Shown: positions 15,435 to 36,705 of the stretch, piece by piece
How positions within the stretch are numbered: position 1 is the first letter of the stretch
How the letters are laid out: each line of letters opens with the position of its first letter
Assembly: GCA_030612025.1 (NCBI GenBank)
Contig: JAUWOR010000001.1
Location: 96,001-160,000 of the forward strand
Source: Dehalococcoidia bacterium
GTDB lineage: Bacteria; Chloroflexota; Dehalococcoidia; GIF9; AB-539-J10
Direction of reading: 5' to 3'
DNA: 64,000 bases
Made by a program: the position numbers and the translations under genes
Notes under the pieces: model-generated
Databases searched by the model: none
What the model saw: only the letters and a program-made list of their open reading frames with translations
Told to the model about the DNA's origin: nothing

Positions 15435-15526
15435 TGGCGGAGGGAGTGGGATTTGAACCCACGACCCCGATTTCTCGGGGTAAGCGCTTAGCAGGCGCCC
15501 GCACTAGGCCACTATGCGATCCCTCC
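15435..15526 (-). tRNA. tRNA-Ser(GCT)
   Basis: Reverse complement GGAGGGA..TAGTGG..CTGCTAA..long variable arm..GGTTCAAATCC..CCCTCCGCCA; CCA encoded. Confidence 0.95.
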
Positions 15527-15760
15527 ATGGACTTGAGGGGACAATAGACAGAACTTTTAGCCCTGCATTCAATCTTACTTCCTAGTCTACTGCCGCCATA
15601 GCTGTTATTTTACCATGTAGAATGATTAAGCCACAACTTGGTCGACATTCATCTTTGCAAGGCAGCTAGAGCCCCTCTTGCACCCGCCAAATTCTAACCC
15701 TTATCAGGAGGCTTTCACAGTTAGGTGTTGAGCCGGATAAAGTCGTTGCTTCGCAATGCT

Positions 15761-15817
15761 TCCATCTTTCAAACTTCTTCATGTTATAAACGCTTTGAGT
15801 TTGTATAAAGTCCGCCC
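15761..15817 (-). pseudogene. 57-bp metF fragment (ADFIQTQSVY..KKFERW)
   Basis: 54/57 nt identical to 21460-21516. Confidence 0.8.
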
Positions 15818-15892
15818 AATTTCATAAAAATGGCAAGGAAGGCGCTAGCTTCCAAAAAGTCCCTGAATAAGAGCCTTCTTAAGTCTTGAAAT

Positions 15893-15920
15893 TTGCAAAT
15901 AGTAGCAAAAGCGTTAAAAT
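15893..15920 (+). promoter_or_regulatory. Candidate sigma70 promoter for the hydrogenase operon
   Basis: TTGCAA-16 nt-TAAAAT; same -35 hexamer as the kinase promoter at 22312. Confidence 0.45.
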
Positions 15921-15938
15921 CTCGGGTTGACTAGTGAG

Positions 15939-16069
15939 ATGATAAATAACCTGCTAGGATAGTTTGTTCTAGGCTGGAACATATGAGGAAGATGCTAGGA
16001 CATATTTTATCCATCGTTTTTCACGACTTAGAGGCTCCTCTAGCTGTGATTGAAAGAGTTCAAGGCTAA
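15939..16069 (+). pseudogene. Frameshifted histidine-kinase H-box fragment, paralogous to 22353..23495
   Basis: MINNL/ARIVCSRLEHMRKMLGHILSIVFHDLEAPLAVIE vs MNNLAKVVSSRLKHARETMGRILSVIFHDLKAPLAAVE. Confidence 0.8.
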
Positions 16070-16093
16070 AGCAATAGAATCGAAAGGAGTGTT

Positions 16094-16981
16094 ATGAAAG
16101 TTTCGAACGTGAAGGAGTACCCAGCAATATGGCTACAATGTGCTGCCTGCACTGGGTGCTCTGTTTCAGTTCTCAATGCTGTAAATCCCTCTATTAAAAA
16201 TCTACTAATTGATGAGGTGCTCCCCGGGAAGCACATAAATTTGAGATTCCACCCCACTGTGATGGCAGGATCGGGAGCACCAGTGGTCGAAGTTATGGAG
16301 GATACCTCAAAGCAGAAAAGGGGTGATTATATTCTCATCGTAGAGGGTGCTATTCCTACAGCCAAGAACGGCATCCACGGGGTAGTTGGGGAGAAGGCTG
16401 GAAAGCCTGTGACCATGCTGTCGCGGTTTGAGGAGTTAGCCAAAGATGCCCTAGTAGTTATAGCCTTGGGGACTTGTGCTGCCTTTGGGGGAATCCCGGC
16501 TGCTCATCCCAACCCTAGCCAATGCCTTAGCGTGGGAGATGTTCTTCAATCTCGAGACATCAATACCTTTTTGGTAAACATCCCAGGCTGCCCACCACAC
16601 CCCGATTGGTTTGTGGGCACAGTGGCAAGTATCTTGTTTTCAGGCTTACCAAAGCCAGAGGACTTGGACGAATATAGACGTCCCAAAGCCTTCTATGGTC
16701 AACTAATCCATGAAAACTGCCCGCGGCGAGCCTACTACGATGAGAACAAGTTTGCTAAGAAGTTTGGCGATCCCGGCTGCCTCTATGAACTGGGATGCAA
16801 GGGTTCAGTAACCTATTCCGATTGTCCTTTAAGGCTTTGGAACAATGGGGTGAACTGGTGTATAGCTAATGGTTCCCCTTGTATTGGTTGCACGGAGCCA
16901 GGCTTTCCTGATGAAGTGTCACCTCTTTACGAGAAGATAACAGCCACTCTGCCGGAAACACCAACAGGAGGTTCGAGTTAA
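16094..16981 (+). CDS. [NiFe] hydrogenase small subunit, group 1-type, no Tat signal
   Basis: WLQ..ACTGC, GTCAAFGG, PGCPPHP, HENCPRR, CLYELGCKG..TYSDC, WC..NGSPCIGCTEP. Confidence 0.93.
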   Translation: MKVSNVKEYPAIWLQCAACTGCSVSVLNAVNPSIKNLLIDEVLPGKHINLRFHPTVMAGSGAPVVEVMEDTSKQKRGDYILIVEGAIPTAKNGIHGVVGEKAGKPVTMLSRFEELAKDALVVIALGTCAAFGGIPAAHPNPSQCLSVGDVLQSRDINTFLVNIPGCPPHPDWFVGTVASILFSGLPKPEDLDEYRRPKAFYGQLIHENCPRRAYYDENKFAKKFGDPGCLYELGCKGSVTYSDCPLRLWNNGVNWCIANGSPCIGCTEPGFPDEVSPLYEKITATLPETPTGGSS

Positions 16982-18540
16982 TGGGTAAGATTATAATCGA
17001 CCCGGTAACACGCATTGAAGGGCATCTCAAAATCGAGGTGGTGGTTGAGAATAAAGAAGTAAAGGAAGCTAGGAGTTCAGGGACATTATTTCGCGGCTTA
17101 GAGCTAATCCTAAGGGGCAGAGATCCCCGTGATGCCCAACGGATAACTCAGCGTATTTGTGGGGTTTGCCCCACAAGCCACTCCACAGCAGCCGCTCTAA
17201 GCTTGGATAGTGCTTTCGGAATCGCTGATAAAATACCGGATAATGGTAGGATAATACGTAATCTAATTCTTGGCGCAGCTCATATCGCAGACCACATCCT
17301 CCACTTCTATCACCTGGTTGCCCTCGACTATGTGGATGTAACTGAAATAGCAAAATATGAAGGCAATACCCCGACCCTAAATTCAATAAAGAGCTTTATT
17401 AAGCGAGGTGAGCTTGGTCCCTTTATCCCTCGCTATGAAGGCGATTATCGCTTGCCCGATAAGGTTAATGAGCAAGCGGTAGCTCATTATGTTCAGGCAT
17501 TTGATATGCGCCGTAAAGGTCAAGAGATGCTTTCTCTCTTTGGCGGCAAGATGCCTCACAATGTTGGCATCGTCCCTGGAGGTGTTACTTCTACTCCTAC
17601 AGTAGATAAGATAATATCCTTCCTGTGGAGGCTTAAAGAGCTCCAAGAATTTATCGATAACGTCTATATCCCCGACGTAGCAGCAATAACCCAAGCTTAT
17701 CCCGATTACCTTGAGATTGGGCATGGTTGCGGGAGCTTGCTTTCCTATGGAGCCTATGAACTGGATGGGAAGGAGCCTAACCTCACAAAAAGGAAGAGAC
17801 TATTTAAGCCAGGAATAACTTCCACCGACCTTAGCTTTAATGGGCTGAAGCCAGATAAAATTGCCGAGGAAGTGAAGCATTCTTGGTATAGTGATTCCAT
17901 TAGTGGCAGGCATCCCTCTCAAGGCGACATTATACTCAATGAGGAGAAGGATGGGGCCTATTCCTGGATAAAATCCCCGCGTTATGAAGGCAAGGTTTAT
18001 GAGGCTGGTCCCTTAGCTCGACTCATGGTTACCTATGTTAGTGGCAAGCCTGAGGTTAAAAGCCTTGTTGACTCCACCTTGGCGAAGCTAAGTATAAGTA
18101 TAGATGCTATGTTCTCCGTTTTAGGGCGTCACCTTGCTCGAGCCCTGGAAACCAAGTTTATAGCTGATTCCATGGCTGATTGGCTCTTGGAGCTCAAGCC
18201 TAATGAGCCAGCTTATGTAAGCTACGAGCTTCCACAGGAGGCTACTGGAATGGGTTTGACTGAGGCAGCCAGGGGAGCATTGGGACATTGGATAGAGATA
18301 AGAGAGGGCAAAATTGCCAATTATCAAGTCGTTACTCCCACTAGCTGGAATGCCTCCCCTATAGATGATAGGGAACAACCTGGACCTATTGAGCAGGCTA
18401 TCACAGGAGCCAAGATAAAGGATGAAGCTAATCCCTTTGAAATCGTGCGCATTGTGCGCTCCTTTGACCCCTGCTTAGCCTGTGCCGTACATTTAATTAG
18501 TCCTAAGGGGCATGATCTAGGGGCATATCGCATCTGTTGA
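16981..18540 (+). CDS. [NiFe] hydrogenase large subunit, group 1a (HysA/HynA-like, Cys not Sec)
   Basis: DPVTRIEGH, L1 QRICGVCPTSH, L2 RSFDPCLACAVH plus a cleavable C-terminal tail. Confidence 0.95.
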   Translation: MGKIIIDPVTRIEGHLKIEVVVENKEVKEARSSGTLFRGLELILRGRDPRDAQRITQRICGVCPTSHSTAAALSLDSAFGIADKIPDNGRIIRNLILGAAHIADHILHFYHLVALDYVDVTEIAKYEGNTPTLNSIKSFIKRGELGPFIPRYEGDYRLPDKVNEQAVAHYVQAFDMRRKGQEMLSLFGGKMPHNVGIVPGGVTSTPTVDKIISFLWRLKELQEFIDNVYIPDVAAITQAYPDYLEIGHGCGSLLSYGAYELDGKEPNLTKRKRLFKPGITSTDLSFNGLKPDKIAEEVKHSWYSDSISGRHPSQGDIILNEEKDGAYSWIKSPRYEGKVYEAGPLARLMVTYVSGKPEVKSLVDSTLAKLSISIDAMFSVLGRHLARALETKFIADSMADWLLELKPNEPAYVSYELPQEATGMGLTEAARGALGHWIEIREGKIANYQVVTPTSWNASPIDDREQPGPIEQAITGAKIKDEANPFEIVRIVRSFDPCLACAVHLISPKGHDLGAYRIC

Positions 18541-18556
18541 TAAGGACAAAAGAGAA

Positions 18557-18991
18557 ATGGAAACCATCATTCTGGGAATAGGGAATGTCCTATTGAAGGA
18601 CGAGGGAGTGGGGTGCCATGTCGCCCACGCTTTGGAGAAAATTCCCCTTCCCAATACAAAGGTGATAGATGGCGGGACATCCCCAAATATATTGTTCCTC
18701 GAGGACGCCGCTAAATTGATTGTAGTGGATGCTGTTAAGGGGGGAGGGGTGCCAGGAGAAGTTTATCGCTTTCGTCTTGATGATATAGCTCTAGAGCAAA
18801 AGCCATTTCTATCCCTTCACGATATAGGCTTAATAGACAATTTGCTGTTAATGAGACTTTTACATAACATAGGCGAGACCATCATTATTGGGGTTGAGCC
18901 CAAAGAGATAGAGTGGAGTTTGGAATTATCGCCTGAGCTTCAAGCGAAGATACCTCGGATAGTGGAGACGATATTAGCAGAACTTAGTTAG
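18557..18991 (+). CDS. Hydrogenase maturation protease (HyaD/HybD family)
   Basis: LGIGNVLLKDEGVG, IDGGT, VVDAV, SLHD. Confidence 0.93.
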   Translation: METIILGIGNVLLKDEGVGCHVAHALEKIPLPNTKVIDGGTSPNILFLEDAAKLIVVDAVKGGGVPGEVYRFRLDDIALEQKPFLSLHDIGLIDNLLLMRLLHNIGETIIIGVEPKEIEWSLELSPELQAKIPRIVETILAELS

Positions 18992-19018
18992 CTGAAAGCT
19001 GTCAGCTGATAGCTATCA
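18991..19018. repeat. (C)AGCTG/A heptamer repeat tract
   Basis: gctgaaa-gctgtca-gctgata-gctatca. Confidence 0.6.
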
Positions 19019-19033
19019 GAAAGGAGAGGTGGA

Positions 19034-19684
19034 ATGTTGATTTCAGAGCAAAAACCACTCGAGGAAATTTTGAGTTACCTTGATGGTGAAAGGAATATTT
19101 TTCTCATCGGCTGCAAAGGATGTGCTGAAGGCTGTGAGAGCGGTGGGGAGAAGCAAGTGCTGGAAATGAAGCACACCTTAGAGGGGCAAGGCAAAGCAAT
19201 TAGTGGTTTCTCAATTATCGATATGGTGTGCAATGAGACATTGACCAGGATGAAGTTAAAAACTCACCAGGAGGAGATGAAGGCTGCGGATTCGATTTTG
19301 GTGCTTACCTGTGGTACTGGGGTGCAAACAGTGGCAGGAGCGACAGATAAAGTTGTACATCCTGGCTGTAATACCTTATCCTCTGGCGGTGCCCATGCTG
19401 AATGGAAGGAAGCAGAGCGCTGTCTTGAGTGTGGTGACTGCGTGTTGGAATTCACCGGTGGCATCTGTCCCATTGCCAGATGCTCCAAGCATTTGCTTAA
19501 CGGCCCTTGTGGCGGCTCGCAAGGAGGCAAGTGTGAGGTTGATCCGAGCATTCCCTGCGCTTGGCAATTGATTATTGAGAGGTTAACTAAATTAGGGCAA
19601 CTTGACAAGCTGGAGAAGATTGTGGCACCGAAAAACTGGAGTGTAAGCCTTATTGCCGGTCCACCAGTAAAAAGGGGGCTCTAA
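19034..19684 (+). CDS. metV: Methylene-THF reductase MetV subunit (MTHFR C-terminal-like zinc/FeS protein)
   Basis: GCKGCAEGC, CGTGVQ, CLECGDC..TGGICPIARCSK.LLNGPCGG..GKCE...CAW. Confidence 0.88.
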   Translation: MLISEQKPLEEILSYLDGERNIFLIGCKGCAEGCESGGEKQVLEMKHTLEGQGKAISGFSIIDMVCNETLTRMKLKTHQEEMKAADSILVLTCGTGVQTVAGATDKVVHPGCNTLSSGGAHAEWKEAERCLECGDCVLEFTGGICPIARCSKHLLNGPCGGSQGGKCEVDPSIPCAWQLIIERLTKLGQLDKLEKIVAPKNWSVSLIAGPPVKRGL

Positions 19685-19709
19685 AAATTCGAAGACTTTT
19701 CAGGATCAA

Positions 19710-19850
19710 AGGGTGTTCAAAAATGTAGTACGAGGCTTTAGCCTCGTGCACGACCCTAAAGGGTCGCACTACGAGAATCTTGGAGGTGAAGAGTATTAAA
19801 ACTGGATGAGACAAATCCAGTTTTGAATCTGAGGCAAAATTAAACAGCCT
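19710..19850 (+). mobile_element. 141-bp MITE with internal REP doublet
   Basis: AGGGTGTTCAAAAA ... AATTAAACAGCCT termini; colinear with 29551-29691. Confidence 0.8.
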
Positions 19851-19871
19851 CGGGTCAAGTAAGGAGGTAGG

Positions 19872-20789
19872 ATGAAGACCAAGAGCAATTTGGAGAGGGT
19901 GCTTGAAGCTGGGCATTTCGCTGTCACTGGCGAAATAGGACCACCGCCAAGCGCCGACTCTGAGGTGATAAAGAGAAAAGCAAGAATACTCAAAGGTCAT
20001 GTTGATGCCTTTAATGTCACTGATGGTCAAACAGCCGTGGTGCGCATGTCAAGTTGGGCAGCTTGCCTTATAGGAAAAGAAGAAGGCTTAGACCCTATTG
20101 TTCAAATGACTTGTCGGGATAGAAATCGCATTGCCCTTCAGATGGATATATTAGGCGCGGCAGCATTAGGTATAAATAATATCTTGTGCCTCACTGGCGA
20201 CCACCAGAAATTCGGCAATCATCCTATGGCTAAAGGCGTCTTTGACCTCGATTCCATCCAATTCCTCAAAGTGGTAAAGGATATGAGGGATGAAAAGAAG
20301 TTCCAGTGTGGTGACGAGATGGCGGTTGAGCCAAACCTCTTCACAGGGGCAGCTGCCAATCCCTTCGCCGATCCCTTCGAGTTTAGAGTAATTCGTCTTG
20401 CCAAGAAAGTAGCCGCAGGGGCGGATTTCATTCAAACTCAGATCGTCTACAATATGGATAAGTTTGCCGAGTGGATGAAGCGCGTGCGCGATAGGGGATT
20501 ACATGAGAAGGTAAAAATCCTTGCCGGGGTTGCTCCGATAAAATCAGTAGGCGCGGCAAGGTATATGAAGACCAAAGTTCCTGGGATGGATGTCCCTGAT
20601 AGCATTATTGAACGCCTCCGTGGTGTGCCCAAAGAGCGAGTCTCAAAGGAAGGGATTAAGCTCTGTGTTGATATTATCAATCAGGTGCGCCAGATCGAAG
20701 GTGTAGCTGGTATTCATCTCATGGCTATTGAGTGGGAGGAGACTGTGCCTGAGATAATAGAGGCAGCGGGCCTTCTACCCCGCCCTTAA
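19872..20789 (+). CDS. metF: Methylenetetrahydrofolate reductase MetF (copy 1)
   Basis: EIGPP, NVTD, TCRDRNR, LCLTGD, VFDLDS, GADFIQTQ, GIHLM. Confidence 0.93.
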   Translation: MKTKSNLERVLEAGHFAVTGEIGPPPSADSEVIKRKARILKGHVDAFNVTDGQTAVVRMSSWAACLIGKEEGLDPIVQMTCRDRNRIALQMDILGAAALGINNILCLTGDHQKFGNHPMAKGVFDLDSIQFLKVVKDMRDEKKFQCGDEMAVEPNLFTGAAANPFADPFEFRVIRLAKKVAAGADFIQTQIVYNMDKFAEWMKRVRDRGLHEKVKILAGVAPIKSVGAARYMKTKVPGMDVPDSIIERLRGVPKERVSKEGIKLCVDIINQVRQIEGVAGIHLMAIEWEETVPEIIEAAGLLPRP

Positions 20790-21118: not shown

Positions 21119-22066
21119 TTATTGCCTCCCCAATTCTTCAAGGGAAGTGCGAGGATAAAGACCACTAGCCTCACAGATCTCTGGAACAACTTCTTCCCAT
21201 TCAATAGCCATGATATGGATACCTGCTACCCCTTCTATTTCCTTCAGACTGTTTATGGTTTCCACGGCAATTTTTATCCCGTCCTTCCGCACTTGCTCCC
21301 TAGTAGTAGCCTTGCGAAGGCGCTCAATGAGCTCATCGGGAACGTCCACCCCAGAAAGCTTTGTCTTCATATATCTCGCTATGGCTACAGATTTTAGTGG
21401 AGTAATACCGGCAAGGATTTTTACTTTCTTGTGCAGTTCCCTCTCCCGAACCATTTCCATCCATCTTTCAAACTTCTTAATGTGATAAACACTTTGAGTT
21501 TGTATAAAGTCCGCCCCGGCAGCAACTTTCTCCCCGAGGCGAATCACTTCGTGCTCCGTGGGCTCGGCAAAGGGGCTTGTTACTGCCCCAATGAAAAGTC
21601 TTGGTTCTCTTCCAGCTATTAACTCCCCATTCTCAAACTTTTTTTCATCCCGGAGTCCTTTGACCATCCTGATAACTTGGATAGAATCGAGGTCGAAAAC
21701 GGATTTTGCCTCAGGGCAATTTCCAAAAGAAACAGGATCACCGGAGAGACAAAGTATGTTATTCACACCAAACGTGGAGATGCCCAAAATGTCCATCTGG
21801 AGAGCAATTCGATTTCTGTCACGACAAGTCATTTGCACTATGGGATCAAGCCCTTCTTGTTTCCCTATAAGGCAGGCTGCCCAGCTTGCCATCGCTACCA
21901 CCGCTGACTCTCCATCCGGAACATTAAAAGCATCAACATAGCCTTTAACAAGATTAGCTTTTTCCCTTATCACCTCGGGTTCCGTATTCCGAGGGGGACC
22001 GATTTGAGCAGTCACGGCAAAATATCCTGCTTCGAGTACCCTTTCTAGGTTGCTTTTCGTCTTCAC
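21119..22066 (-). CDS. metF: Methylenetetrahydrofolate reductase MetF (copy 2, convergent paralog)
   Basis: Same N-terminus MKTKSNLERVLEAG as copy 1; TCRDRNR, GADFIQTQ; GTG start. Confidence 0.92.
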   Translation of the reverse strand: MKTKSNLERVLEAGYFAVTAQIGPPRNTEPEVIREKANLVKGYVDAFNVPDGESAVVAMASWAACLIGKQEGLDPIVQMTCRDRNRIALQMDILGISTFGVNNILCLSGDPVSFGNCPEAKSVFDLDSIQVIRMVKGLRDEKKFENGELIAGREPRLFIGAVTSPFAEPTEHEVIRLGEKVAAGADFIQTQSVYHIKKFERWMEMVRERELHKKVKILAGITPLKSVAIARYMKTKLSGVDVPDELIERLRKATTREQVRKDGIKIAVETINSLKEIEGVAGIHIMAIEWEEVVPEICEASGLYPRTSLEELGRQ

Positions 22067-22285: not shown

Positions 22286-22311
22286 AATAAACGCTCTCAC
22301 ACCATCAATGC

Positions 22312-22340
22312 TTGCAAAAATCTTTAGAAGTACTTATAAT
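22312..22340 (+). promoter_or_regulatory. Sigma70-type promoter for the kinase-hdr-met operon
   Basis: TTGCAA-17 nt-TATAAT, 12 nt before ATG 22353. Confidence 0.65.
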
Positions 22341-22352
22341 GTAAAACCCGAA

Positions 22353-23495
22353 ATGAAAGCAGTAGTCGAATTGGGCTCAGTTAAGGAAATATTAAAGCAT
22401 TCAGACTTGTTCCGGGGGCTGAGCAACGACGAACTGGATAAGTTGCTACCGCTTTGCCGAGAAGAGGTTTATGAAGCCGGGATAGTTATTTTCCCTGAAG
22501 GCACCCCATGCCATACTATGTATATCGTGGAATCAGGCAAGGTGGCTCTGGAAATGAATCTTCACATTAGTCGGGCGGTAGAGGAAAGTGCCACAATTCA
22601 CGTGGTAACTCAAGGTGGCTGCTTGTGTTGTTCAGGGCTCATAGATCCTTATATTCTTACTGCAACGGGCCGGAGTCTTGAGACAACCAAGGTTATTGCT
22701 TTAGACACGGCGGAGCTTAAAGGTTTGTTCGAAAACAACCCTGAAGTGGGATGTAGGACAATGAATAATCTCGCTAAGGTAGTTTCTTCAAGGCTTAAAC
22801 ACGCTAGGGAGACGATGGGACGCATTCTGTCTGTTATTTTCCATGACCTAAAAGCTCCCCTGGCTGCGGTGGAAAGCTATAATCGGCTCTTGCTCGGTGA
22901 GTTTGCCGGAGAATTAAATGAAGAGCAAAAAAACATAGTGCAAAGGAGTAGTAAGAGACTCTCTGAGCTGCTAAATTTAGTGAGTAACATAATTGATTTT
23001 TCCCGAATTGGTTTCGGGGACTTGAGAATGGAGAGAATTTCTCTGGCAAAAGTGATAGAAGATTGCCTTGAAGCTATGCATCCCCTAGCTGAGGGAAAGG
23101 GGTTGCAACTGGTTGCTGAAGTACCCCGAGAGCTTCCGGCTATTCTTGGAGTTCAAGAGCGGCTTAAACAGGTAGTTAGGAATTTGTTATCCAATGCCAT
23201 TAAGTTTACCCCCTCTGGAGGGGTGGTAACGGTTAAAGCAAAGGATGACATAGATTATGTAGAAGTGGAGGTGGCGGATACCGGAATTGGTATTCCAGCC
23301 AAGGAATTACCCAGGATATTTGACGGTTTTTATCGCGGTCTCGACATAGCTGAAAGGGGAGCTGGCTTAGGGCTTTCTATAACCAAGAGCATAGTTGAGG
23401 CTCACCATGGTAGAATATGGGCTGTGAGTCCCTGTCCGGAAAGCGGTAAGGGGAGCAAGTTTACCTTCATTTTGCCCAAGGATTTGAAAAGGTGA
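22353..23495 (+). CDS. Soluble sensor histidine kinase with N-terminal cNMP-binding (Crp-like) domain
   Basis: LFRGLS..EL...IFPEG..MYIVESGKV; H-box FHDLKAPL; NLLSNAIKF, DTGIGI, GAGLGL. Confidence 0.92.
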   Translation: MKAVVELGSVKEILKHSDLFRGLSNDELDKLLPLCREEVYEAGIVIFPEGTPCHTMYIVESGKVALEMNLHISRAVEESATIHVVTQGGCLCCSGLIDPYILTATGRSLETTKVIALDTAELKGLFENNPEVGCRTMNNLAKVVSSRLKHARETMGRILSVIFHDLKAPLAAVESYNRLLLGEFAGELNEEQKNIVQRSSKRLSELLNLVSNIIDFSRIGFGDLRMERISLAKVIEDCLEAMHPLAEGKGLQLVAEVPRELPAILGVQERLKQVVRNLLSNAIKFTPSGGVVTVKAKDDIDYVEVEVADTGIGIPAKELPRIFDGFYRGLDIAERGAGLGLSITKSIVEAHHGRIWAVSPCPESGKGSKFTFILPKDLKR

Positions 23496-23547
23496 GGAGA
23501 AGATTAAATAAGTTGCCCAACTAAAACCAGTCAGCGGAGTAAGGTAG

Positions 23548-23973
23548 ATGGCTAAGATTCTGATAGTAGATGATGACCCTGATATTCGAATAGCAATTAG
23601 TAGTGTGTTAAAGTCACGTTCCTACGAGGTAATTGAAGCTCGTGATGGAGAGGAAGCTCTAACCAGGCTAAAAGAACAAAAACCAGACTTAATGCTCTTA
23701 GATCTCCTGCTGCCAAAGATGGATGGCTTTGCTGTTGTCAAGGAACTGCAGAACACCCAGTGGAGTGAGTATCACAATATGCCCATTTTAATTATAAGCT
23801 CGGTGAGAGAGGAGGCCAGCCAACGCCGCTATGAGTTGGAAACTGGTCATCGACTCGGTGCTGAAGACTATATAGAAAAACCCATCGAGCCATTTGCCTT
23901 ACTTAAGCGCATAAAGAAGCTCTTATCGAAGGGAGGGGAAGATGCAGAAGCAAACCAAAATCCTCGTGATTGA
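23548..23973 (+). CDS. Single-domain response regulator (receiver only)
   Basis: ILIVDDD, LLDLLLPKMDG, YIEKP. Confidence 0.92.
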   Translation: MAKILIVDDDPDIRIAISSVLKSRSYEVIEARDGEEALTRLKEQKPDLMLLDLLLPKMDGFAVVKELQNTQWSEYHNMPILIISSVREEASQRRYELETGHRLGAEDYIEKPIEPFALLKRIKKLLSKGGEDAEANQNPRD

Positions 23974-24349
23974 CGATGACCCTGATTTACAGACAGTAGT
24001 GAAGAGCGTGCTTGAAAGCAAGTCCTATCAGGTGGTTGCTGCGCTTGATGGAAATGAAGGTTTGCGGAAGGTAGTGGATGAAAGGCCTGATTTAATTATC
24101 TTAGACGTGATAATGCCAGGTAAAAGTGGGTTCGAGGTTTGCCGAGAAATCAAGACTGATCCCAAATATTACTTCTTCTCTCACATTCCCGTGCTGATGC
24201 TAACTGTCTATCCTGATGATAGAGAAAAGATGCATCTCTCTATGCGAGAGGGGATGACAATGGAGGCAGAAGACTACCTACACAAGCCCTTCGATCCCAA
24301 AGAACTACTGAATCGAGTGGAGGAATTACTAAAAAAAGAAGCTAAATAG
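23942..24349 (+). CDS. Single-domain response regulator (receiver only)
   Basis: ILVIDDD, ILDVIMP, YLHKPF. Confidence 0.92.
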   Translation: MQKQTKILVIDDDPDLQTVVKSVLESKSYQVVAALDGNEGLRKVVDERPDLIILDVIMPGKSGFEVCREIKTDPKYYFFSHIPVLMLTVYPDDREKMHLSMREGMTMEAEDYLHKPFDPKELLNRVEELLKKEAK

Positions 24350-25593
24350 TGAATAAGTCTACTGTAGTTATTGGCGGTGGCATAAGTGGAATAACTTCAG
24401 CATTAGAATTAGCCAATAGCGGCTTTAGAGTATACTTAATCGAGAGAGAAGCAGCAATTGGAGGGCAAGCTGCTTCTTTTTGTTGTAAAGCAACGGAGGT
24501 TTGCACTAAATGCTCTGTCTGCCTTGTCCCCCAAAGCTTAGCTAAGGTGGCAGTCCACCCTCGAATCTCGATCTTGACCGACTCGATGGTGGCAGGGTTA
24601 AGCGGCGAAATCGGAGATTTTAAGGTCGAGGTGCTTCAAAAGCCTCAATACATTACCCCAGAAAGATGTATCGCTTGCGGAATATGTGCTGAGGTTTGTC
24701 CTACCGAGCCGAAGGCAATCCTTCCACCTTCTCCAGAGGCAATCCCTTATTGTTATGTCATCGATGAAAGGCTATGTCTTCGCCTCAGAGGTGAGAAGTG
24801 CAACCTCTGTCAGGGAATATGTCCCACGGACGCTATAGCCTTTGACCTTAAACCTGAAAGGCAAGAACTGAGTGTCGGCGCAATTATCGTCGCCACCGGC
24901 TTCGAAGTCTTTAACGCCCGAGAAATTGGCTCCCTGGGTTATGGTAGATATCCTAATGTCTTGACTGGCCTCGACCTGGAGAGGATTTTTAATCGTGAGG
25001 GCTATCTTAAACTTCCCACAAATGGAAAGGAGCCAAAAAACATTGCCTTCGTCCAATGTGTCGGCTCCAGAGACGAAAGTCATGGCTATTGCTCCCAGGT
25101 ATGCTGTAAGTACGCCATGAGGTTCGCTCGGCTTATTAAGTATCAAAATCCTGATGCCCAGGTGACTATCTTCTATATTGATCTTCAGACTGCCGGGAAG
25201 GGTTTTGCCCAGTTTTATCAGGAGTGTCGGGAAAGTATTCGATTTATCCGAGGAGTACCAGTTGAAATTTTACAGACCCCCTCCAGCGAACTTGAAGTGA
25301 GGTTTGAGAATATTTCAGAAGGAAAGGTTGAACGAGAAACCTTTGACCTGGTAACCCTTTCGGTAGGCATCGCCCCTAGGAAAGATTCCTGGGATTTGGC
25401 CAGGATTTTGGGAATAAATTTAGCAGACTATGGCTTCTTCGATACTAAGGAGCCTTTTAATTCCGTAGAGACCAATGTCGAGGGGATTTTCCTCGCCGGA
25501 ACTTGTCAAGGTCCCAAAGATATCCCTGATTCGATCGCTCATGGAATAGCAGCGGCAGAGAGGGTGATGGAGGTTTTAGAAAAATGCCAGTAA
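24349..25593 (+). CDS. HdrA/QmoA-like FAD/FeS protein
   Basis: GGGISG, two ferredoxin motifs, QCVGSRD..YCSQVCC, GIFLAGTCQGPKDI. Confidence 0.9.
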   Translation: MNKSTVVIGGGISGITSALELANSGFRVYLIEREAAIGGQAASFCCKATEVCTKCSVCLVPQSLAKVAVHPRISILTDSMVAGLSGEIGDFKVEVLQKPQYITPERCIACGICAEVCPTEPKAILPPSPEAIPYCYVIDERLCLRLRGEKCNLCQGICPTDAIAFDLKPERQELSVGAIIVATGFEVFNAREIGSLGYGRYPNVLTGLDLERIFNREGYLKLPTNGKEPKNIAFVQCVGSRDESHGYCSQVCCKYAMRFARLIKYQNPDAQVTIFYIDLQTAGKGFAQFYQECRESIRFIRGVPVEILQTPSSELEVRFENISEGKVERETFDLVTLSVGIAPRKDSWDLARILGINLADYGFFDTKEPFNSVETNVEGIFLAGTCQGPKDIPDSIAHGIAAAERVMEVLEKCQ

Positions 25594-27227
25594 AGCTAGG
25601 CATTTTCCTCTGCGATTGTGGAGGAAGTCTAAAGAATATAAATTCCCCCAAAATTAGGGAAGATTTAGGGAAACTCGAAGACGTCGCCTTTGTAGACATA
25701 AGCCATAATCTATGCCTCGAAGAAGGAGAGAAGGCGATAGCTTCAAGAATCCTGAGGGAAAACGTAAATAGAGTAGTAATCGCTGCTTGCTCACCAGAGT
25801 TATGTGAGGATAAATTTATGAGGCTTCTAGAAGGACTTGGGCTTAACCCTGATCTTCTTTCCATAGCAAATATAAGGGAGCAATGTTCCTGGGCTCATGA
25901 AGGGGATGTTACCGAGAAGGCGTTGGAACTCATAAGAATGGCTATAAATAAAGCTCGGTTGCTTCAGGGTGTGGAAAGAGGGCAGGTTCCAGTAAACAAA
26001 GAGGTTCTCGTGGTAGGCGGAGGATTCTCTGGGATGAAATCATCTCTTGAACTTTCCCAGCTTGGCATTAGGACAACTATAGTGGAAAGAGCGTCAACTT
26101 TGGGAGGGAAGCTTAAGGGGCTAGAAGGGTTTTACGGACTCAAGACAAGCCCGAATGAGATGTTTGGCTCGATGACAAGGGTGATAGAGGAAGATGAAAA
26201 CATCGAAGTTTTTACTTCTGCTGAGGTAGCAAGGGTGCAAGGGGAAGTAGGGGATTTCGCCGTAAGGATAAGAAGCGGGGAAAAGGAATCCTCCCAAAGC
26301 TTTGGGGCTATCATCTTTGCTACCGGATATAGAACTGAAATCTTACCTCAAGATTTTGAGCTTAAGCCCGGTGGTAACATTATCTCGCAGCAAAGGCTTG
26401 TCGAGATGCTTCAAGCTCCAGAGAAGTTAGCACGAAGACCCGAAACTATAGGTTTTGCCCTTGATTTCTCCGATGAAAATTCTCGTCTTCCTACGCTCTC
26501 CGCTCTGAAGAATGCTTTGGCAGTCAAAGACAAGCTAGGGAGCGAAGTCTACGTGTTCTGTAAGAATCTGAAGGTGGATAGTGAAGGGGCGGAGAAGCTT
26601 TACCGAGAAGCGAGGGACCGGGGAGTAGTGTTTTTGAAATTTGAAGAAAAACCACGGATATATGGGGAGGATAGTCGAATAAAGGTCGAGGCAAGGGATG
26701 TTCTTCTAGGTGAGGAGGTAACGCTCCTCTGTGACCTCTTGGTGGCTGAGGAAAAAGCTTTGCCCCCTGAAGGAACCAAAGCCCTAAGTTCTATGCTAAA
26801 CATAGAAACCGACTCCCAGGGTTTTTATCAAGACGAAAATGTGCATCTTTATCCCGTGGCATCAGGCAGGAAAGGGGTGTTTTTTGTTGGGGGTTGTCGA
26901 GGGAGCTTAGATCTCGGCCGAGCTTCAACCGATATCGCATCTGCTGTTGGGAGCGTTCATGAGCTTTTATCATCAGGGGAGGCAATGGTGGAGGTGGAGA
27001 AAGTGAAGGCGGATAGTCAAAAGTGCCGAGCCTGCCTCACTTGCATCCGCGTTTGCCCCCATGAAGCAATTCGGCTAGTCCGAGTGGACAGCGAAAGGTG
27101 GGTGGCCAAAATCTATGACCTTGCCTGCGATGGATGCGGTATTTGTGCCGCTATTTGCCCAGCAACGGCGATAAAGTTTGAAGGTTATAGTGATGAGCAA
27201 ATCCTGGCCGAAGTCGAGGCAATATAA
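25584..27227 (+). CDS. HdrA/QmoB-like FAD/FeS protein (divergent)
   Basis: GIFLCDCG, AACSP, NIREQCSWAH, VVGGG, C-terminal 2x[4Fe-4S]; lacks CVGSR/YCSxxCC. Confidence 0.85.
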   Translation: MPVKLGIFLCDCGGSLKNINSPKIREDLGKLEDVAFVDISHNLCLEEGEKAIASRILRENVNRVVIAACSPELCEDKFMRLLEGLGLNPDLLSIANIREQCSWAHEGDVTEKALELIRMAINKARLLQGVERGQVPVNKEVLVVGGGFSGMKSSLELSQLGIRTTIVERASTLGGKLKGLEGFYGLKTSPNEMFGSMTRVIEEDENIEVFTSAEVARVQGEVGDFAVRIRSGEKESSQSFGAIIFATGYRTEILPQDFELKPGGNIISQQRLVEMLQAPEKLARRPETIGFALDFSDENSRLPTLSALKNALAVKDKLGSEVYVFCKNLKVDSEGAEKLYREARDRGVVFLKFEEKPRIYGEDSRIKVEARDVLLGEEVTLLCDLLVAEEKALPPEGTKALSSMLNIETDSQGFYQDENVHLYPVASGRKGVFFVGGCRGSLDLGRASTDIASAVGSVHELLSSGEAMVEVEKVKADSQKCRACLTCIRVCPHEAIRLVRVDSERWVAKIYDLACDGCGICAAICPATAIKFEGYSDEQILAEVEAI

Positions 27228-27239
27228 TATATGGAGAAG

Positions 27240-27415
27240 CACTAAATACTAATAGAAAATCAAAAGGCAAAAGTAAAAATGCAAACTGACAAAGCAAAAT
27301 TTAAAAATCAGTTTAATAAAGCCTTTTTGCTTTTTTGAATTGTAATTTTGATTTTTTATCTTTGATTTTTGATATTGTTAGAATTTGCTTAGAGATTAGA
27401 ATTTAGGATTTAACT
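27240..27415. repeat. AT-rich heptamer-unit imperfect inverted repeat
   Basis: AATCAAAAGGCAAAAGTAAAAATG.. then TTTTGATTTTTTATCTTTGATTTTTGAT..; resembles 5859-5958. Confidence 0.65.
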
Positions 27416-27422
27416 TAAAGGT

Positions 27423-27815
27423 ATGACCAGAGAAAATAAAAAAATTATCGCTTTTTGCTGCGCTGAGTCAGCATATCGGGCAGCCAATAGAGCCGGGAGG
27501 CTCAGGATTCGCTACCCAGATAATGTAAGAGTCATTCGGGTCCCTTGTGCTGGAAGGGTGAGCGTGCTTCACATTCTCAAAGCTTTTGAAAAGGGCGCCG
27601 CTGGAGTGCTGGTGATGGGCTGTCAGGAAGGCGCTTGTCGCCATCTAACGGGCAACATTAGGGCAAAGGAAAGGGTAAAGTATGCCAAAGACTTGCTCAA
27701 AGAAGTAGGAATAAATGGACAGCGAGTAAAAATGGTCAATTTCGGCCCTGACATGGCTCAAAAATTCGCCCGTGAGATCGAGGAGATGGTGGAAAAAATT
27801 CACCCTGTGAAATAA
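27423..27815 (+). CDS. mvhD: MvhD/FlpD-like [2Fe-2S] subunit
   Basis: IIAFCC, RVPCAGRV, GADG-like GVLVMGC..GACRH..GN. Confidence 0.88.
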   Translation: MTRENKKIIAFCCAESAYRAANRAGRLRIRYPDNVRVIRVPCAGRVSVLHILKAFEKGAAGVLVMGCQEGACRHLTGNIRAKERVKYAKDLLKEVGINGQRVKMVNFGPDMAQKFAREIEEMVEKIHPVK

Positions 27816-27840
27816 TATTTCACGGGGTAAAGGAGGAAAA

Positions 27841-28503
27841 ATGATAATCGCCGCAAGGAAGCCTTTGGAGGAAATTAGAAATATGCTTGCTGGGTATAAA
27901 AGGATTCTGGTGGTGGGGTGTGGAACCTGTGTCACCATATGTTGGGCCGGTGGAGAGAAAGAGGTGGGAATACTTTCTTCCCAGCTTAGGCTTGCCTCAA
28001 GCAAAGATGGAAATGAACTTTCTGTCATGGAAGCGGTAGTCGAAAGACAATGCGAAAAAGAGATGGTGATTGAAGAACTTGGAGATAAAGTGCCCGGAGT
28101 GGAAGCGATTCTCTCTATGGGCTGTGGGGTTGGAGTGCAAACGATAGCTGAGGTATTTGAGGAAAAGCCCATCTTCCCAGCGCTTAACACCACATTCATG
28201 GGAATGCCCGAGGCAGAAGGAGTTTGGACTGAGAAATGTGGGGCTTGCGGAGATTGTCTGCTTTATTGGACTGGAGGGATCTGTCCGGTTGTACGCTGCG
28301 CTAAAGGGCTCCTCAACGGGCCTTGTGGTGGCACAAGGAAGGGTGGGAAATGCGAAATAGACCCAGAAAAGGATTGTGCCTGGGTTCTTATCTACCGAAG
28401 ACTGGAAAAACAGGGAAGGCTCAATCTGATGAGGAAGTATTATGAGCCTAAGAACTACCGGGCAGTGAAAAGGCCCGGGAAGATTGAAGCCTTGGAGGCT
28501 TAA
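27841..28503 (+). CDS. metV: MetV subunit (copy 2)
   Basis: GCGTCVTIC, RQCE, CGVGVQ, CGACGDC..TGGICPVVRCAKGLLNGPCGG. Confidence 0.9.
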   Translation: MIIAARKPLEEIRNMLAGYKRILVVGCGTCVTICWAGGEKEVGILSSQLRLASSKDGNELSVMEAVVERQCEKEMVIEELGDKVPGVEAILSMGCGVGVQTIAEVFEEKPIFPALNTTFMGMPEAEGVWTEKCGACGDCLLYWTGGICPVVRCAKGLLNGPCGGTRKGGKCEIDPEKDCAWVLIYRRLEKQGRLNLMRKYYEPKNYRAVKRPGKIEALEA

Positions 28504-28521
28504 ATCATAGGGGGTGCAAAA

Positions 28522-29418
28522 ATGGCAAGACCTTTCAGAGAAATGCTTAAAACGAAGGATTTTATTGTAACCGCTGAGGCTGGGCCAGAAAAAGGGTCAA
28601 ATATCGCGAAGCTGGTTGAGCATATTGAGCTTCTCAAAGACAGGGTAGATGGTCTAAATGTGACTGATAATCAAAGCGCTGTGATGAGGTACCCTTCTCT
28701 TGGGACTTGCCTACTCATTAAGGAGCATGGCGGGGAGCCAATTCTCCAGATCACTTGCCGGGATCGGAATCGCCTGGCAATTCAAGCAGACCTTCTTTTT
28801 GCTTACTCCAGAGGAATAAATAATGTCCTTTGTCTCACCGGTGATGCTATCGACACGGGTGACCATAAAGAAGCAAAGCCCGTCTTCGACCTTGATTCAG
28901 TTCAGTTAATTCATCTTGTTCATACATTGAACTCTGGAAAAGATATGGTAGGAAACGAACTTGATGGAGGTGTTGATTTTTGTATCGGGGCATCTGCTAC
29001 TCCCTCGGCAGACCCTATCGAGCCTCAACTTCTGAAATTCCAAAAAAAACTGGATGCCGGGATGGACTTCATTCAAACTCAAGCTGTTTATGATATGGAT
29101 GAGCTCAAAAGATTCATGGAGAATTTCCATAAGATGGATCATATTGACGGGGTGAAGATTTTAGCTGGGGTAGTTCCTATCTGGGGAGCAAAGATGGCAA
29201 GATATATGAACGAAAATGTTCCCGGAATATATGTTCCTCAGTATTTAATCGACGAAATAGACCAAGCTCCTAAAGGAACAAAAGCAGCCAAAGGAATAGA
29301 AATGACTGGAAGGCTCATAAGGCAGATAAAGGAGGAGAAAATTTGTGACGGGGTTCATGTTATGGCTATTGGAAGAGAGGAAAGGGTTCCTGCGATTCTG
29401 GAAGCTGCGGGAATTTAA
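28522..29418 (+). CDS. metF: Methylenetetrahydrofolate reductase MetF (copy 3)
   Basis: NVTDNQSA, TCRDRNRLA, CLTGD, VFDLDS, FIQTQ, GVHVM. Confidence 0.93.
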   Translation: MARPFREMLKTKDFIVTAEAGPEKGSNIAKLVEHIELLKDRVDGLNVTDNQSAVMRYPSLGTCLLIKEHGGEPILQITCRDRNRLAIQADLLFAYSRGINNVLCLTGDAIDTGDHKEAKPVFDLDSVQLIHLVHTLNSGKDMVGNELDGGVDFCIGASATPSADPIEPQLLKFQKKLDAGMDFIQTQAVYDMDELKRFMENFHKMDHIDGVKILAGVVPIWGAKMARYMNENVPGIYVPQYLIDEIDQAPKGTKAAKGIEMTGRLIRQIKEEKICDGVHVMAIGREERVPAILEAAGI

Positions 29419-29550: not shown

Positions 29551-29691
29551 AGGGTGTTTAAAAATGTAGTGCGACCCTTTAGGGTCGTGCACGAGGCTAA
29601 AGCCTCGCACTACGAAAATTTTGGGGTGAATGGGTATTAAAACTGAATGAGATAAATCTAGTTTTGAATTTGAGGCAAAATTAAACAGCCT
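29551..29691 (+). mobile_element. 141-bp MITE with internal REP doublet
   Basis: AGGGTGTTTAAAAA ... AATTAAACAGCCT termini; colinear with 19710-19850. Confidence 0.8.
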
Positions 29692-29717: not shown

Positions 29718-30197
29718 TTGACTGTAGTCTTAAACGAGCAAGACACTAAATTCAAATATGATGTGGCTGAAGAGCCTGGCGGAGAGAATATCAAACTTTG
29801 CTTTGCCTGTGGGCTCTGCACCGCTAGTTGTCCTGTGGCAGACATTGACCCTGGATATAATCCTCGAAAGATAATCCGCATGGTTCTCCTGGGAATGAGA
29901 AAGGAAGTCCTTTCATCAAATTTGCCCTGGCTTTGCACCCAGTGCTACACCTGCCAAGCTCACTGCCCTCAGAACGTGAAATTCTCCGATGTAATGAAGG
30001 CATTAAGGAGCATGGCGGTGCGGGAAGGATATGTCCATCCTTCTTTCCTTGAGCAGATAAAAGAGATTGACTCCTTCTCGCAGAAGTCACGCCATCAAAT
30101 GGTGCTATCCGTTGTAGATAAGAAATCTGAGGAAATGAAGGTAGACCCGACTAAGCTTGCTGAGGAGGCACTGGAAAAGGAGAAGGCGAAAGTTTAG
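29718..30197 (+). CDS. hdrC: Heterodisulfide reductase subunit C-like ferredoxin
   Basis: CFACGLCTASCP...PRKIIRMVLLG...WLCTQCYTCQAHCP. Confidence 0.88.
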   Translation: MTVVLNEQDTKFKYDVAEEPGGENIKLCFACGLCTASCPVADIDPGYNPRKIIRMVLLGMRKEVLSSNLPWLCTQCYTCQAHCPQNVKFSDVMKALRSMAVREGYVHPSFLEQIKEIDSFSQKSRHQMVLSVVDKKSEEMKVDPTKLAEEALEKEKAKV

Positions 30198-30209
30198 GGA
30201 GGTAAAGCT

Positions 30210-30635
30210 ATGGAAGCTAAGGATAAGCCTATAGGAGCAGCACTGGTGGTTGGGGGGGGAATCGGAGGGATTCAAGCAGCACTCGATTTAGCCGAGTCCG
30301 GGTATAAGGTCTACTTGGTGGAAAAATCTCCCGCCATCGGCGGAGTTATGGCTCAGCTTGATAAGACCTTTCCTACTTTAGACTGTTCCATGTGTATCCT
30401 CTCCCCAAAACTTATCGAATGTGGAAGACACCCTAATATTGAACTCTTAACCTATTCGGACATCCTGGATGTTAAAGGAGAGCCGGGGAAATTTAAGGTA
30501 AAAGTCAGGAAGCGCGCAAGGTCTATCGATCTTGAGAAATGTACCGGCTGCGGTATTTGTTACAACAGTTGTCCTGTGAAATATAAGCCTCAACTTAAAG
30601 AAGGAGGATATCATGGTCACGGTGGAACTCGATAA
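30210..30635 (+). CDS. HdrA N-terminal segment (split gene)
   Basis: VVGGGIGG, EKSPAIGG.MAQLDKTFPTLDCSMCILSPK, CTGCGICYNSCP, then stops. Confidence 0.88.
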   Translation: MEAKDKPIGAALVVGGGIGGIQAALDLAESGYKVYLVEKSPAIGGVMAQLDKTFPTLDCSMCILSPKLIECGRHPNIELLTYSDILDVKGEPGKFKVKVRKRARSIDLEKCTGCGICYNSCPVKYKPQLKEGGYHGHGGTR

Positions 30636-31074
30636 AGTTGATGAAATCATAGATAGATATGTAGGTGAAGAAGGGATTTTGATTCAATTGTTGTTGGATA
30701 TACAGAGCGAATTAAATTGGATCCCTAAGGAAGCCTTGGAGCGAATAAGCGAGAGGCTCAAGGTGCCAGTAAGCCAGATATATCGTATAGCCAGCTTTTA
30801 TAAAGCCATGAGCCTGACCCCAAGAGGGAAGCATATAATAAATGTCTGCCTCGGCACTGCCTGCCACGTGCGAGGAGGTCCGAGGATTATGGATAGGGCA
30901 AAGCAGATTTTGGGCATAGACGCCGGAGAGACAACCCCGGATATGCAGTTCACTCTGGAAAGGGTTAATTGCCTCGGCTGTTGCGCCTTAGGGCCAGTGA
31001 TGGTAGTTGATAGAGATTACCATGGCAAGATAACACCAGCAAAGGTAAAAGAGATTATCGAGACCTGTGATTAG
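30613..31074 (+). CDS. NuoE/HydC-like [2Fe-2S] subunit
   Basis: VCLGTACHVRG, VNCLGCCALGP. Confidence 0.93.
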   Translation: MVTVELDKVDEIIDRYVGEEGILIQLLLDIQSELNWIPKEALERISERLKVPVSQIYRIASFYKAMSLTPRGKHIINVCLGTACHVRGGPRIMDRAKQILGIDAGETTPDMQFTLERVNCLGCCALGPVMVVDRDYHGKITPAKVKEIIETCD

Positions 31075-31081
31075 GGGGGCT

Positions 31082-33004: not shown

Positions 33005-33013
33005 GAGACTGCC

Positions 33014-36283: not shown

Positions 36284-36285
36284 AA

Positions 36286-36705
36286 ATGAACAAGGAAGAA
36301 TTTGAACCAAAGATATTAGCTTTTTGCTGTAACTGGTGTGCTTATGCCGGTGCTGACCTCGCTGGTGTATCACGAATGCAGTATCCACCGAATATAAGGA
36401 TCATTAGGGTTATGTGTTCTGGTAGGGTGGAACCTGAGTTCGTTCTTAAAGCTTTTACCCTTGGTGCCGATGGGGTGCTAGTCCTTGGCTGCCACCCTGG
36501 AGATTGCCATTACTTATCTGGTAACTATAAAACAATGAGGAGAGTGCCGTTAACAAAGAGGCTTTTAGAACAGTTTGGGGTAGAACAGGAGAGATTGAAG
36601 TTGGAGTGGGTTTCGGCAGCTGAGGGAGCAAGATTTGCGCAAGTAGTAACTGATTTTACCAGCAAGGTAAAGGAATTGGGACCAAATCCACTAAAAGGAA
36701 GTTAA
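36286..36705 (+). CDS. mvhD: MvhD [2Fe-2S] subunit
   Basis: AFCCNWCAYAGADLAG, RVMCSGRV, GADGV..GCHPGDCHY..GN. Confidence 0.95.
   Translation: MNKEEFEPKILAFCCNWCAYAGADLAGVSRMQYPPNIRIIRVMCSGRVEPEFVLKAFTLGADGVLVLGCHPGDCHYLSGNYKTMRRVPLTKRLLEQFGVEQERLKLEWVSAAEGARFAQVVTDFTSKVKELGPNPLKGS

Follow-up and report, generated by a model that had tools for sequence, protein, structure and literature searches.

A leaderless group 1-type [NiFe] hydrogenase encoded with MetV and MetF in a Dehalococcoidia genome: a candidate soluble H2:methylene-tetrahydrofolate oxidoreductase

The stretch of DNA analysed here, referred to as the window, comprises 64,000 nucleotides of a Dehalococcoidia bacterium genome (assembly GCA_030612025.1, contig JAUWOR010000001.1, positions 96,001 to 160,000). 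At positions 16094-20789 it carries five co-directional genes on the + strand, which encode the small subunit (HydS) and the large subunit (HydL) of a [NiFe] hydrogenase, a hydrogenase maturation endopeptidase, MetV and MetF. We propose, with a probability of roughly 60%, that the products of these genes form a soluble cytoplasmic H2:methylene-tetrahydrofolate (methylene-THF) oxidoreductase. The observations behind this proposal are the gene content, the missing signal leader of HydS, the conserved synteny, the failure to find TatC of the twin-arginine translocation (Tat) system in the genome, and the co-occurrence of the module with acetyl-CoA synthase.

In the proposed mechanism, the Ni-Fe centre of HydL would split H2, and HydS would dock physically onto MetV. 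Electrons would flow from H2 to methylene-THF, that is, in the direction of H2 uptake, with no energy coupling in the HydSL-MetVF assembly. By analogy with the published modular scheme of methylene-THF reductases (MTHFRs), the hydrogenase can be read as the electron-input module, the part that is played by RnfC2 in type III and by HdrCBA-MvhD in type IV enzymes. HydSL-MetVF is thus a possible fifth MTHFR type.

Operon Organization

HydS (295 aa, 16094-16981; PF01058 and PF14720) and HydL (519 aa, 16981-18540; PF00374 and NF033181) are translationally coupled, the hydS stop and the hydL start sharing 1 nt (TAATG). The maturation endopeptidase (18557-18991; PF01750, TIGR00072) follows after 16 nt. 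After a further 42 nt comes MetV1 (216 aa, 19034-19684; PF12225), a hydrogenase-linked MetV subtype, and after another 187 nt MetF1 (305 aa, 19872-20789; PF02219, 158 bits), the catalytic subunit of methylene-THF reductase. All five genes lie on the + strand. The juxtaposition of a PF02219 TIM-barrel MetF with a Cys-motif PF12225 MetV is what defines an MTHFR of the MetVF type. A preliminary description of this DNA, made from its letters and open reading frames (ORFs), had given the order small subunit, large subunit, protease, metV, metF and called the genes tightly spaced; the order stands, whereas the spacing does not hold for the metV-metF gap, into which a repeat has been inserted (see below).

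The translational coupling of hydS and hydL supports the proposed enzyme, as does the presence of a full maturation set, consisting of the protease, the C-terminal extension of HydL and HypF elsewhere in the genome.

Small Subunit and Cellular Location

The first cluster motif of HydS, CTGC, occupies residues 19-22, and position 16094 is the earliest possible start following the upstream stop, which leaves no room for a Tat leader. In the alignment with the small subunit of Desulfomicrobium baculatum in its mature, signal-cleaved form (1CC1_S, E 1.6e-83), residue 5 of HydS falls opposite residue 4. HydS begins where mature periplasmic enzymes begin and therefore has no Tat leader. The NCBIfam NiFeSe small-subunit profile is matched by HydS only from profile position 37, and all 80 related loci described below are leaderless, the frame upstream of the match being open for at most 99 nt. 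At the C-terminus, ~15 non-hydrophobic residues follow the last conserved block, so that there is no membrane tail. No gene for cytochrome b, a cytochrome c partner or another anchor was found within the 10-27 kb ORF map. The preliminary description had reported a first cluster motif within ~20 aa, no twin-arginine leader, no transmembrane tail and no cytochrome b or anchor gene, and each of these statements was borne out.

Export through a partner that carries a Tat signal had been named in the same description as an outcome that would undo its interpretation. An RR leader was absent from all five operon proteins, and TatC (PF00902) was not found in the source genome (95.6% complete, 19 contigs) by a search that did detect it in 11 of 14 controls. 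No TatC was found either in 14 of the 19 hydrogenase-carrying relatives, eight of these 14 being at least 94% complete. Taken together, the missing RR leaders and the missing TatC make hitch-hiking export of HydSL on a Tat-bearing partner very unlikely, as judged from the genome sequences.

Across the aligned relatives of HydS, twelve ligands, 11 of them Cys and the other His206, show no or almost no variation: C19, C22, C128, C166, H206, C209, C229, C235, C244, C256, C263 and C266. We take them to belong to the proximal, medial and distal clusters. HydS also contains a 6-residue insertion, VLPGKH, at residues 42-47 (window ~16217-16234), in which P44 and H47 are invariant in the clade. The insertion is clade-specific, being gapped in ~90 of 97 leader-bearing representatives, and possibly forms a new surface feature.

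Conservation of the Gene Neighbourhood

Two samples were used to follow the linkage between hydrogenase and metVF. The first consisted of 41 genomes of the same order, of which 18 contained a full-length HydS match (E <=1e-129) and one more a fragment at a contig end. HydS, HydL, protease and MetV, then MetF, were found in this order in all 15 loci of adequate length; the three others were truncated. The second sample was a species-level scan (one genome per species), which returned 255 loci with a relative, and the best 80 of these were analysed. Within this set MetV came after the hydrogenase in 61 of 61 loci that extended at least 3.7 kb past the HydS start. MetF was located within 3-6 kb in 52 of the 53 loci with at least 6.2 kb, locus L121 being the exception. 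Synteny was kept down to 63% HydS identity. Conservation of the gene neighbourhood, proposed earlier as a check on the linkage, was thus confirmed both for MetV (61/61) and for the whole gene order in the same-order genomes (15/15).

The module also coincided with the gene for acetyl-CoA synthase (CdhC), which was present in 19 of 19 module-carrying relatives, while the module occurred in none of the eight genomes that gave no CdhC match; these counts come from related genomes and hence are not independent, and they do not amount to a statistical test.

Nitrospirota labels were attached to three of the best 80 loci and an archaeal label to one. Locus L055, a 5.9-kb contig labelled Woesearchaeota, encodes a HydS 95% identical to that of the window, and its upstream neighbour is the same methyltransferase gene. 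This contig probably comes from Dehalococcoidia and was misbinned.

MetV1 and the MetF Paralogues

Three MetV and four MetF paralogues are encoded in the genome. MetV1 shares 41.7% identity with MetV2 (~42% with MetV2 and MetV3 alike), whereas MetF1 is 67.6% identical to MetF2 and 43.1% to MetF3 (~43% to MetF3/MetF4). Eleven Cys residues of MetV1 are invariant (27, 30, 66, 130, 133, 136, 145, 150, 159, 167 and 175).

A MetV1-type gene was the first gene past the hydrogenase and protease in every one of the 64 loci with any MetV/MetF match. Which genes followed it differed between loci, as seen in the 56 that extend 5.6 kb or more past the HydS start. MetV1 was followed by a MetF1-type gene in 26 loci and by a MetF3/4-type gene in 16; a second MetV and then a MetF1-type gene followed in seven, and a MetF3/4-type and then a MetF1-type gene in three. 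The remaining arrangements were MetV1, second MetV, MetF3/4-type (two loci), MetV1, MetF3/4-type, second MetV (one locus) and MetV1 only (one locus). A tandem second MetV was accordingly placed between MetV1 and MetF in 9 of the 56 loci. Divergent second MetV copies (37-46% identity to MetV1) were recorded in L052, L053, L057, L060, L063, L064, L071, L077, L078, L083 and L117. Because MetV1 is constant while the type of MetF varies, MetV1 looks like the hydrogenase-specific partner. As far as gene order indicates, HydSL and MetV1 make up the conserved core, and MetF, the catalytic subunit, can be exchanged.

The AlphaFold2 model of MetV1 had a mean pLDDT of 77.9, with a confident N-terminal alpha/beta domain (residues 1-116) and a poorly modelled Cys-rich half. 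A Foldseek comparison of this model with the PDB gave generic Rossmann-like matches alone (E >=0.004), and no solved MetV structure was found by sequence search. Prediction of a HydS-MetV complex from alignments A3 and A2, run with no controls, gave a median of 0.22 against a mark of 0.32 and counts neither for nor against docking.

Large Subunit, Maturation and Classification

HydL contains the Ni-Fe motifs RICGVCPTSH and DPCLACAVH, with Cys and not Sec, and continues for 15 aa past the latter as a C-terminal extension. It matched PF00374 with 516 bits over profile positions 1-508 and NF033181 with 714.6 bits (cut-off 600). Among solved structures, those of periplasmic group 1a [NiFeSe] enzymes matched both subunits best, with E 1.6e-83 for HydS and 1.3e-133 for HydL, and Mvh-, Frh- and Huc-type chains scored far below group 1.

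A phylogenetic tree was inferred from 107 long-coverage representatives, obtained in a search of 1.84 billion cluster representatives, together with 26 operon-linked HydS sequences. A leader 20 aa or more in length, in most cases containing an RR motif, was present in 97 of the 107 representatives. The 26 operon-linked HydS and one leaderless representative, P0126, formed a single clade (SH-aLRT 99), the sister of which was a leader-bearing protein, with weak support (86). In this midpoint-rooted tree, a single loss of the signal peptide inside group 1 would be the simplest reading of the leaderless clade. The label "group 1", which the preliminary description had assigned without database searches, is backed by the similarity to group 1a structures, by NCBIfam and by the tree.

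Two other identities were considered and rejected. For an Mvh-type (group 3c) enzyme the E-values were 1.1e-4 with MvhG and 5.3e-30 with MvhA, compared with 1e-83 and 1e-133 for group 1. A group 2b sensory hydrogenase was rejected because the sequences side with group 1 and because HydL has its 15-aa extension and a protease is encoded.

The protease gene was found in 56 of 61 related loci with sufficient contig. Among the five loci without it, HydL ends four residues after CxxCxxH in L096 and L101 and exactly there in L105; the remaining protease-less loci retain a HydL tail of ~15 residues. Loss of the protease together with its substrate tail suggests that the variants L096, L101 and L105 are functional genes and not decaying ones.

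Intergenic Repeat and Transcription Signals

The 187-nt length of the metV-metF gap is due to the insertion of a dispersed palindromic repeat of 143 nt (19709-19851, no strand assigned), which resembles miniature inverted-repeat transposable elements (MITE) or repetitive extragenic palindromic (REP) sequences. In the 1.4-Mb genome the repeat gave 79 BLAST high-scoring segment pairs, 23 of which were at least 100 nt long, the repeat itself counted. Elsewhere in the window a full copy is found at 29551-29691, just after metF3, and partial copies at 48784-48827 and 52456-52499. In the same-genus locus L051 the metV-metF gap measures ~40 nt, the flanks are identical and the repeat is absent. Immediately 3' of the inserted repeat, metF retains an intact AAGGAGG ribosome-binding site. 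The depth of run X3 was 235 in bin 19608-19771, far above the remaining bins, with many loose ends. In the four runs compared with the operon in search of RNA evidence, which consisted of short contigs and were in two cases probably DNA, no contig usefully spanned a junction between genes.

The hairpin of the repeat is not followed by a T-run on the + strand. On contig C4, the region 187000-195200 contains dense ~25-nt matches to the hairpin arms, spaced tens of bases apart, and could be a cluster or array of REP-like units.

The 567-nt intergenic region between tRNA-Ser and the HydS start (15527-16093, + strand) is the probable operon promoter region, in which weak sigma-70-like hexamers were found at 15892-15920; an AAGGAG ribosome-binding site stands ahead of the HydS ATG. 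A consensus scan detected no promoter-like site in the 42-nt gap before metV or the 187-nt gap before metF and no terminator-like site on the + strand within the operon. In total it returned 12 promoter-like sites, which is not above the chance level of 9.7 +/- 3.6 expected from shuffles. The scan therefore speaks weakly against a promoter of metV's own, a possibility that the preliminary description had raised as an objection to the linkage.

The upstream neighbours of the operon are the tRNA-Ser gene (15435-15526, minus strand) and divergent methyltransferase genes. An Rfam search of the operon and its gaps gave no match other than the tRNA.

Other Redox Modules of the Genome

Downstream of the operon the window encodes a lone, convergent MetF paralogue, MetF2 (21119-22066, minus strand; PF02219), which is retained in the same-genus loci L051 and L052. 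Next to it, on the + strand at 22308-24349, Pfam identified a histidine kinase with a cyclic nucleotide monophosphate (cNMP)-binding domain and two single-domain response regulators. Homologues of the kinase and regulators occur 3' of the hydrogenase-metVF genes in 15 of the 80 loci, including two labelled Nitrospirota, and sometimes lie between metF copies. The kinase and response regulators may regulate the module.

A second MTHFR module follows at 24349-29418 (+ strand; Pfam) and encodes two HdrA-like proteins, MvhD, MetV2 and MetF3. The third metVF module is located on contig C5 (37512-41210) and consists of a 708-aa protein with Fer4_20, Pyr_redox_2 and MvhD domains, MetV3 and MetF4; this module is a candidate for an unusually built MTHFR that depends on NAD(P)H. 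The genome thus has three metVF pairs, each behind a different redox input, namely HydSL, two HdrA-like proteins with MvhD, and the 708-aa fusion. The neighbours of the metVF pair in the operon are the hydrogenase genes, with no RnfC2 or HdrCBA-MvhD; the HdrA and MvhD genes of the window go with the module at 24349-29418. By our own comparison, the combination of Fer4_20 and Pyr_redox_2 in the 708-aa protein is typical of GltD/NfnB-type enzymes.

A Wood-Ljungdahl cluster on contig C5 (1-12744) comprises genes for formyl-THF synthetase (FTHFS), an AcsE-like protein, CdhD, carbon monoxide dehydrogenase (CODH) and acetyl-CoA synthase (ACS). The same contig encodes an Mvh-type hydrogenase with HdrA and MvhD (70004-76892) and a membrane-bound group 4 hydrogenase (89360-94836). 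A fourth, small [NiFe] hydrogenase adjoins hypF on contig C15. Rnf was not found in the genome.

A further redox block of the window, at 29718-36705, encodes a Fer4 protein, a short HdrA-like fragment, NuoE-like and NuoF-like proteins, a second MvhD and a 1089-aa fusion of Fer2_4, Fer4 and HdrA-like Pyr_redox_2 domains. It may represent an NADH-linked HdrA-type complex.

Comparison with Known Systems

With the periplasmic group 1a enzymes of D. baculatum (1CC1) and Desulfovibrio vulgaris Hildenborough (2WPN/5JSU), the hydrogenase of the window has in common the Cys/His pattern of three-cluster ligands, the Ni-Fe motifs, the C-terminal extension and a dedicated protease. It differs from them in the missing Tat leader, in having Cys for Sec and in the extra VLPGKH. 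The encoded partners are MetV and MetF here and cytochromes there, and TatC was not found in the genome studied here.

The hydrogen-dependent CO2 reductase (HDCR) of Acetobacterium woodii and Thermoanaerobacter kivui joins an [FeFe] hydrogenase to a formate dehydrogenase, the two being wired through Fe-S subunits with no soluble carrier. The logic of linking a hydrogenase to a reductase of the Wood-Ljungdahl pathway is alike, but the window pairs a [NiFe] hydrogenase with MetVF.

The pairing of MetF with MetV is shared with the type II MetVF enzymes of Clostridium ljungdahlii, T. kivui and others (PMC8760232). Fe-S clusters in MetV, a flavin in MetF and, in the portions of that article available to us, no NAD(P)H-binding site in either subunit are also common to both. 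In contrast to type II, metVF lies here behind hydrogenase genes, and MetV1 is a distinct subtype. The same portions describe type III MTHFR as RnfC2-MetVF (A. woodii) and type IV as HdrCBA-MvhD-MetVF (Moorella thermoacetica). As in both of these types, the genes adjoining metVF would provide the electron-input module; the input here would be a [NiFe] hydrogenase with H2 and not NADH as donor, and the operon has no bifurcating flavoprotein.

The nearest biochemical precedent is the methylene-THF-reducing, H2-dependent activity of Sporomusa ovata membranes, as presented in the accessible sections of Kremp, Roth and Muller 2022 (PMC9430772). H2 as donor, methylene-THF as acceptor and the combination of a group 1-type [NiFe] hydrogenase with MetVF are common to the two systems. 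However, the S. ovata hydrogenase is described there as Tat-exported and cytochrome b-anchored, acting through quinone and HdrCBA-MvhD with energy conserved (PMC9430772), whereas the operon of the window appears entirely cytoplasmic and encodes no anchor.

The physiological donor of MetVF enzymes is an acknowledged open problem of acetogen bioenergetics; reduced ferredoxin, the sole donor identified in vitro, is argued not to serve in vivo (PMC8760232, in part). Group I hydrogenases of Dehalococcoidia without a canonical partner were reported by Hug et al. (PMC3971608), in whose accessible sections a link to metVF goes unmentioned. For marine Chloroflexi, the accessible part of Sewell et al. 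2017 (PMC5736913) gives two metVF sets with a two-component system flanking metF and no hydrogenase. In the open full-text literature we came across neither a hydrogenase-metVF operon nor a soluble MTHFR that depends on H2, although the operon might be displayed in the supplementary figures on gene neighbourhoods of PMC9586279 and PMC3971608. The preliminary description had likewise known of no biochemical account of a coupling between hydrogenase and MetVF.

Energetics and Alternative Explanations

Standard potentials of -414 mV for H2 and -200 mV for methylene-THF are given in the accessible part of PMC9586279. By our own calculation, the transfer from H2 to methylene-THF yields ~ -41 kJ/mol under standard conditions, so that the reduction of methylene-THF by H2 is downhill. 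According to the Nernst equation, E(H+/H2) is ~ -266 mV at 1 Pa H2, and a pressure near 0.006 Pa brings it to -200 mV. Since the two couples are close at sediment H2, a direct, non-bifurcating link wastes little energy there. Such a link could work at low H2, where bifurcation cannot.

Several points weigh against the proposed oxidoreductase. Under standard conditions a direct link wastes ~41 kJ/mol, which is odd for an energy-limited organism, though less so at in-situ H2 pressures. The usual electron acceptor of soluble group 1 hydrogenases is a diffusible carrier and not a fixed subunit. The taxon labels of the best 80 loci are nearly all Dehalococcoidia (75/80), and the leaderless type was found in only one (G041, the genome of locus L096) of 301 sampled genomes of Nitrospirota. 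Independent cross-phylum support for the module was therefore not obtained, and its presence in G041 could reflect horizontal transfer or misbinning. The evidence on promoters and terminators comes solely from the consensus scan. Finally, all members of the module are known from their genes alone, and their activity is deduced from these.

As an alternative, the cytoplasmic hydrogenase might reduce a soluble carrier (ferredoxin, flavodoxin or rubredoxin) that passes electrons to a type II MetVF, in which case the operon would reflect nothing but co-regulation. The closest solved relatives are soluble enzymes with a diffusible cytochrome partner. Type II MetVF enzymes, for their part, accept reduced ferredoxin in vitro according to the available text of PMC8760232. 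However, co-regulation alone explains poorly that MetV1 strictly adjoins the hydrogenase (64/64) while MetF varies. The operon includes no ferredoxin gene, and ferredoxin is argued in the same text not to be the physiological donor on H2 + CO2. We regard this explanation as unlikely but still a serious contender.

The module could also run in reverse, oxidizing methyl-THF and evolving H2 while acetate or methyl groups are oxidized under very low H2. The closeness of the couples at sediment H2 (-266 mV at 1 Pa, -200 mV near 0.006 Pa) is in keeping with such a role, as are a membrane-bound group 4 hydrogenase in the same genome and the reputation of [NiFeSe]-type relatives as good H2 producers (PMC13582414, in part). 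Even so, the reaction would be uphill by ~41 kJ/mol under standard conditions and uphill still at 1 Pa, and HydL has Cys, not Sec. This direction is distinctly improbable.

Since two HdrA-like genes, mvhD, metV2 and metF3 lie in the same window (24349-29418), HydSL might be thought to replace MvhAG as the H2-input arm of a bifurcating complex with the HdrA and MvhD encoded 3.5 kb downstream. Such genes accompany few of the 80 loci, however: HdrA-like genes were found near L051, L091 and L117, and MvhD alone in a few others. An Mvh-type hydrogenase with HdrA and MvhD genes to itself is moreover encoded elsewhere in the genome (contig C5, 70004-76892), and we consider the arrangement highly improbable.

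An H2 sensor of the group 2b-like kind, signalling via the nearby histidine kinase, is barely credible: the leader is missing, as this would have it, and a kinase and two response regulators do lie 1.5 kb downstream, with homologues downstream in 15 of 80 loci, but HydSL is placed in group 1 (group 2a, Huc-type, small subunit E 2.2e-41 vs 1.6e-83), it has the protease and C-terminal extension that are not known from sensory hydrogenases, and MetV, not the kinase, is its universal neighbour.

Implications for Dehalococcoidia

The proposed soluble H2:methylene-THF oxidoreductase might be one of two switchable H2 routes to the methylene-THF step, one bifurcating and the other a stable, non-bifurcating HydSL-MetV1-MetF complex. 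In such a scheme, the Mvh-type hydrogenase with HdrA and MvhD would feed MetV2-MetF3 and yield reduced ferredoxin when H2 is plentiful, and HydSL-MetV1-MetF would sustain the pathway once there is too little H2 for bifurcation. Switching would fall to the histidine kinase, with its cNMP-binding domain, and to the two response regulators, the genes of which lie between the two modules. We offer this scheme as rather improbable in its entirety; if true, it would make HydSL-MetVF the fifth MTHFR type and would point to a physiological donor for MetVF enzymes.

Given their small size and solubility, the four proteins HydS, HydL, MetV and MetF could feasibly be expressed in a heterologous host and assayed for H2:methylene-THF oxidoreduction. 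If the hydrogenase is indeed the input module, this would offer a concrete and testable answer to the question of the MetVF donor for a large set of uncultured subsurface Dehalococcoidia. A cytoplasmic lineage would then join a hydrogenase group that is usually treated as periplasmic, and metagenomic "group 1" matches in these bacteria would be a sign of carbon fixation rather than of respiration.

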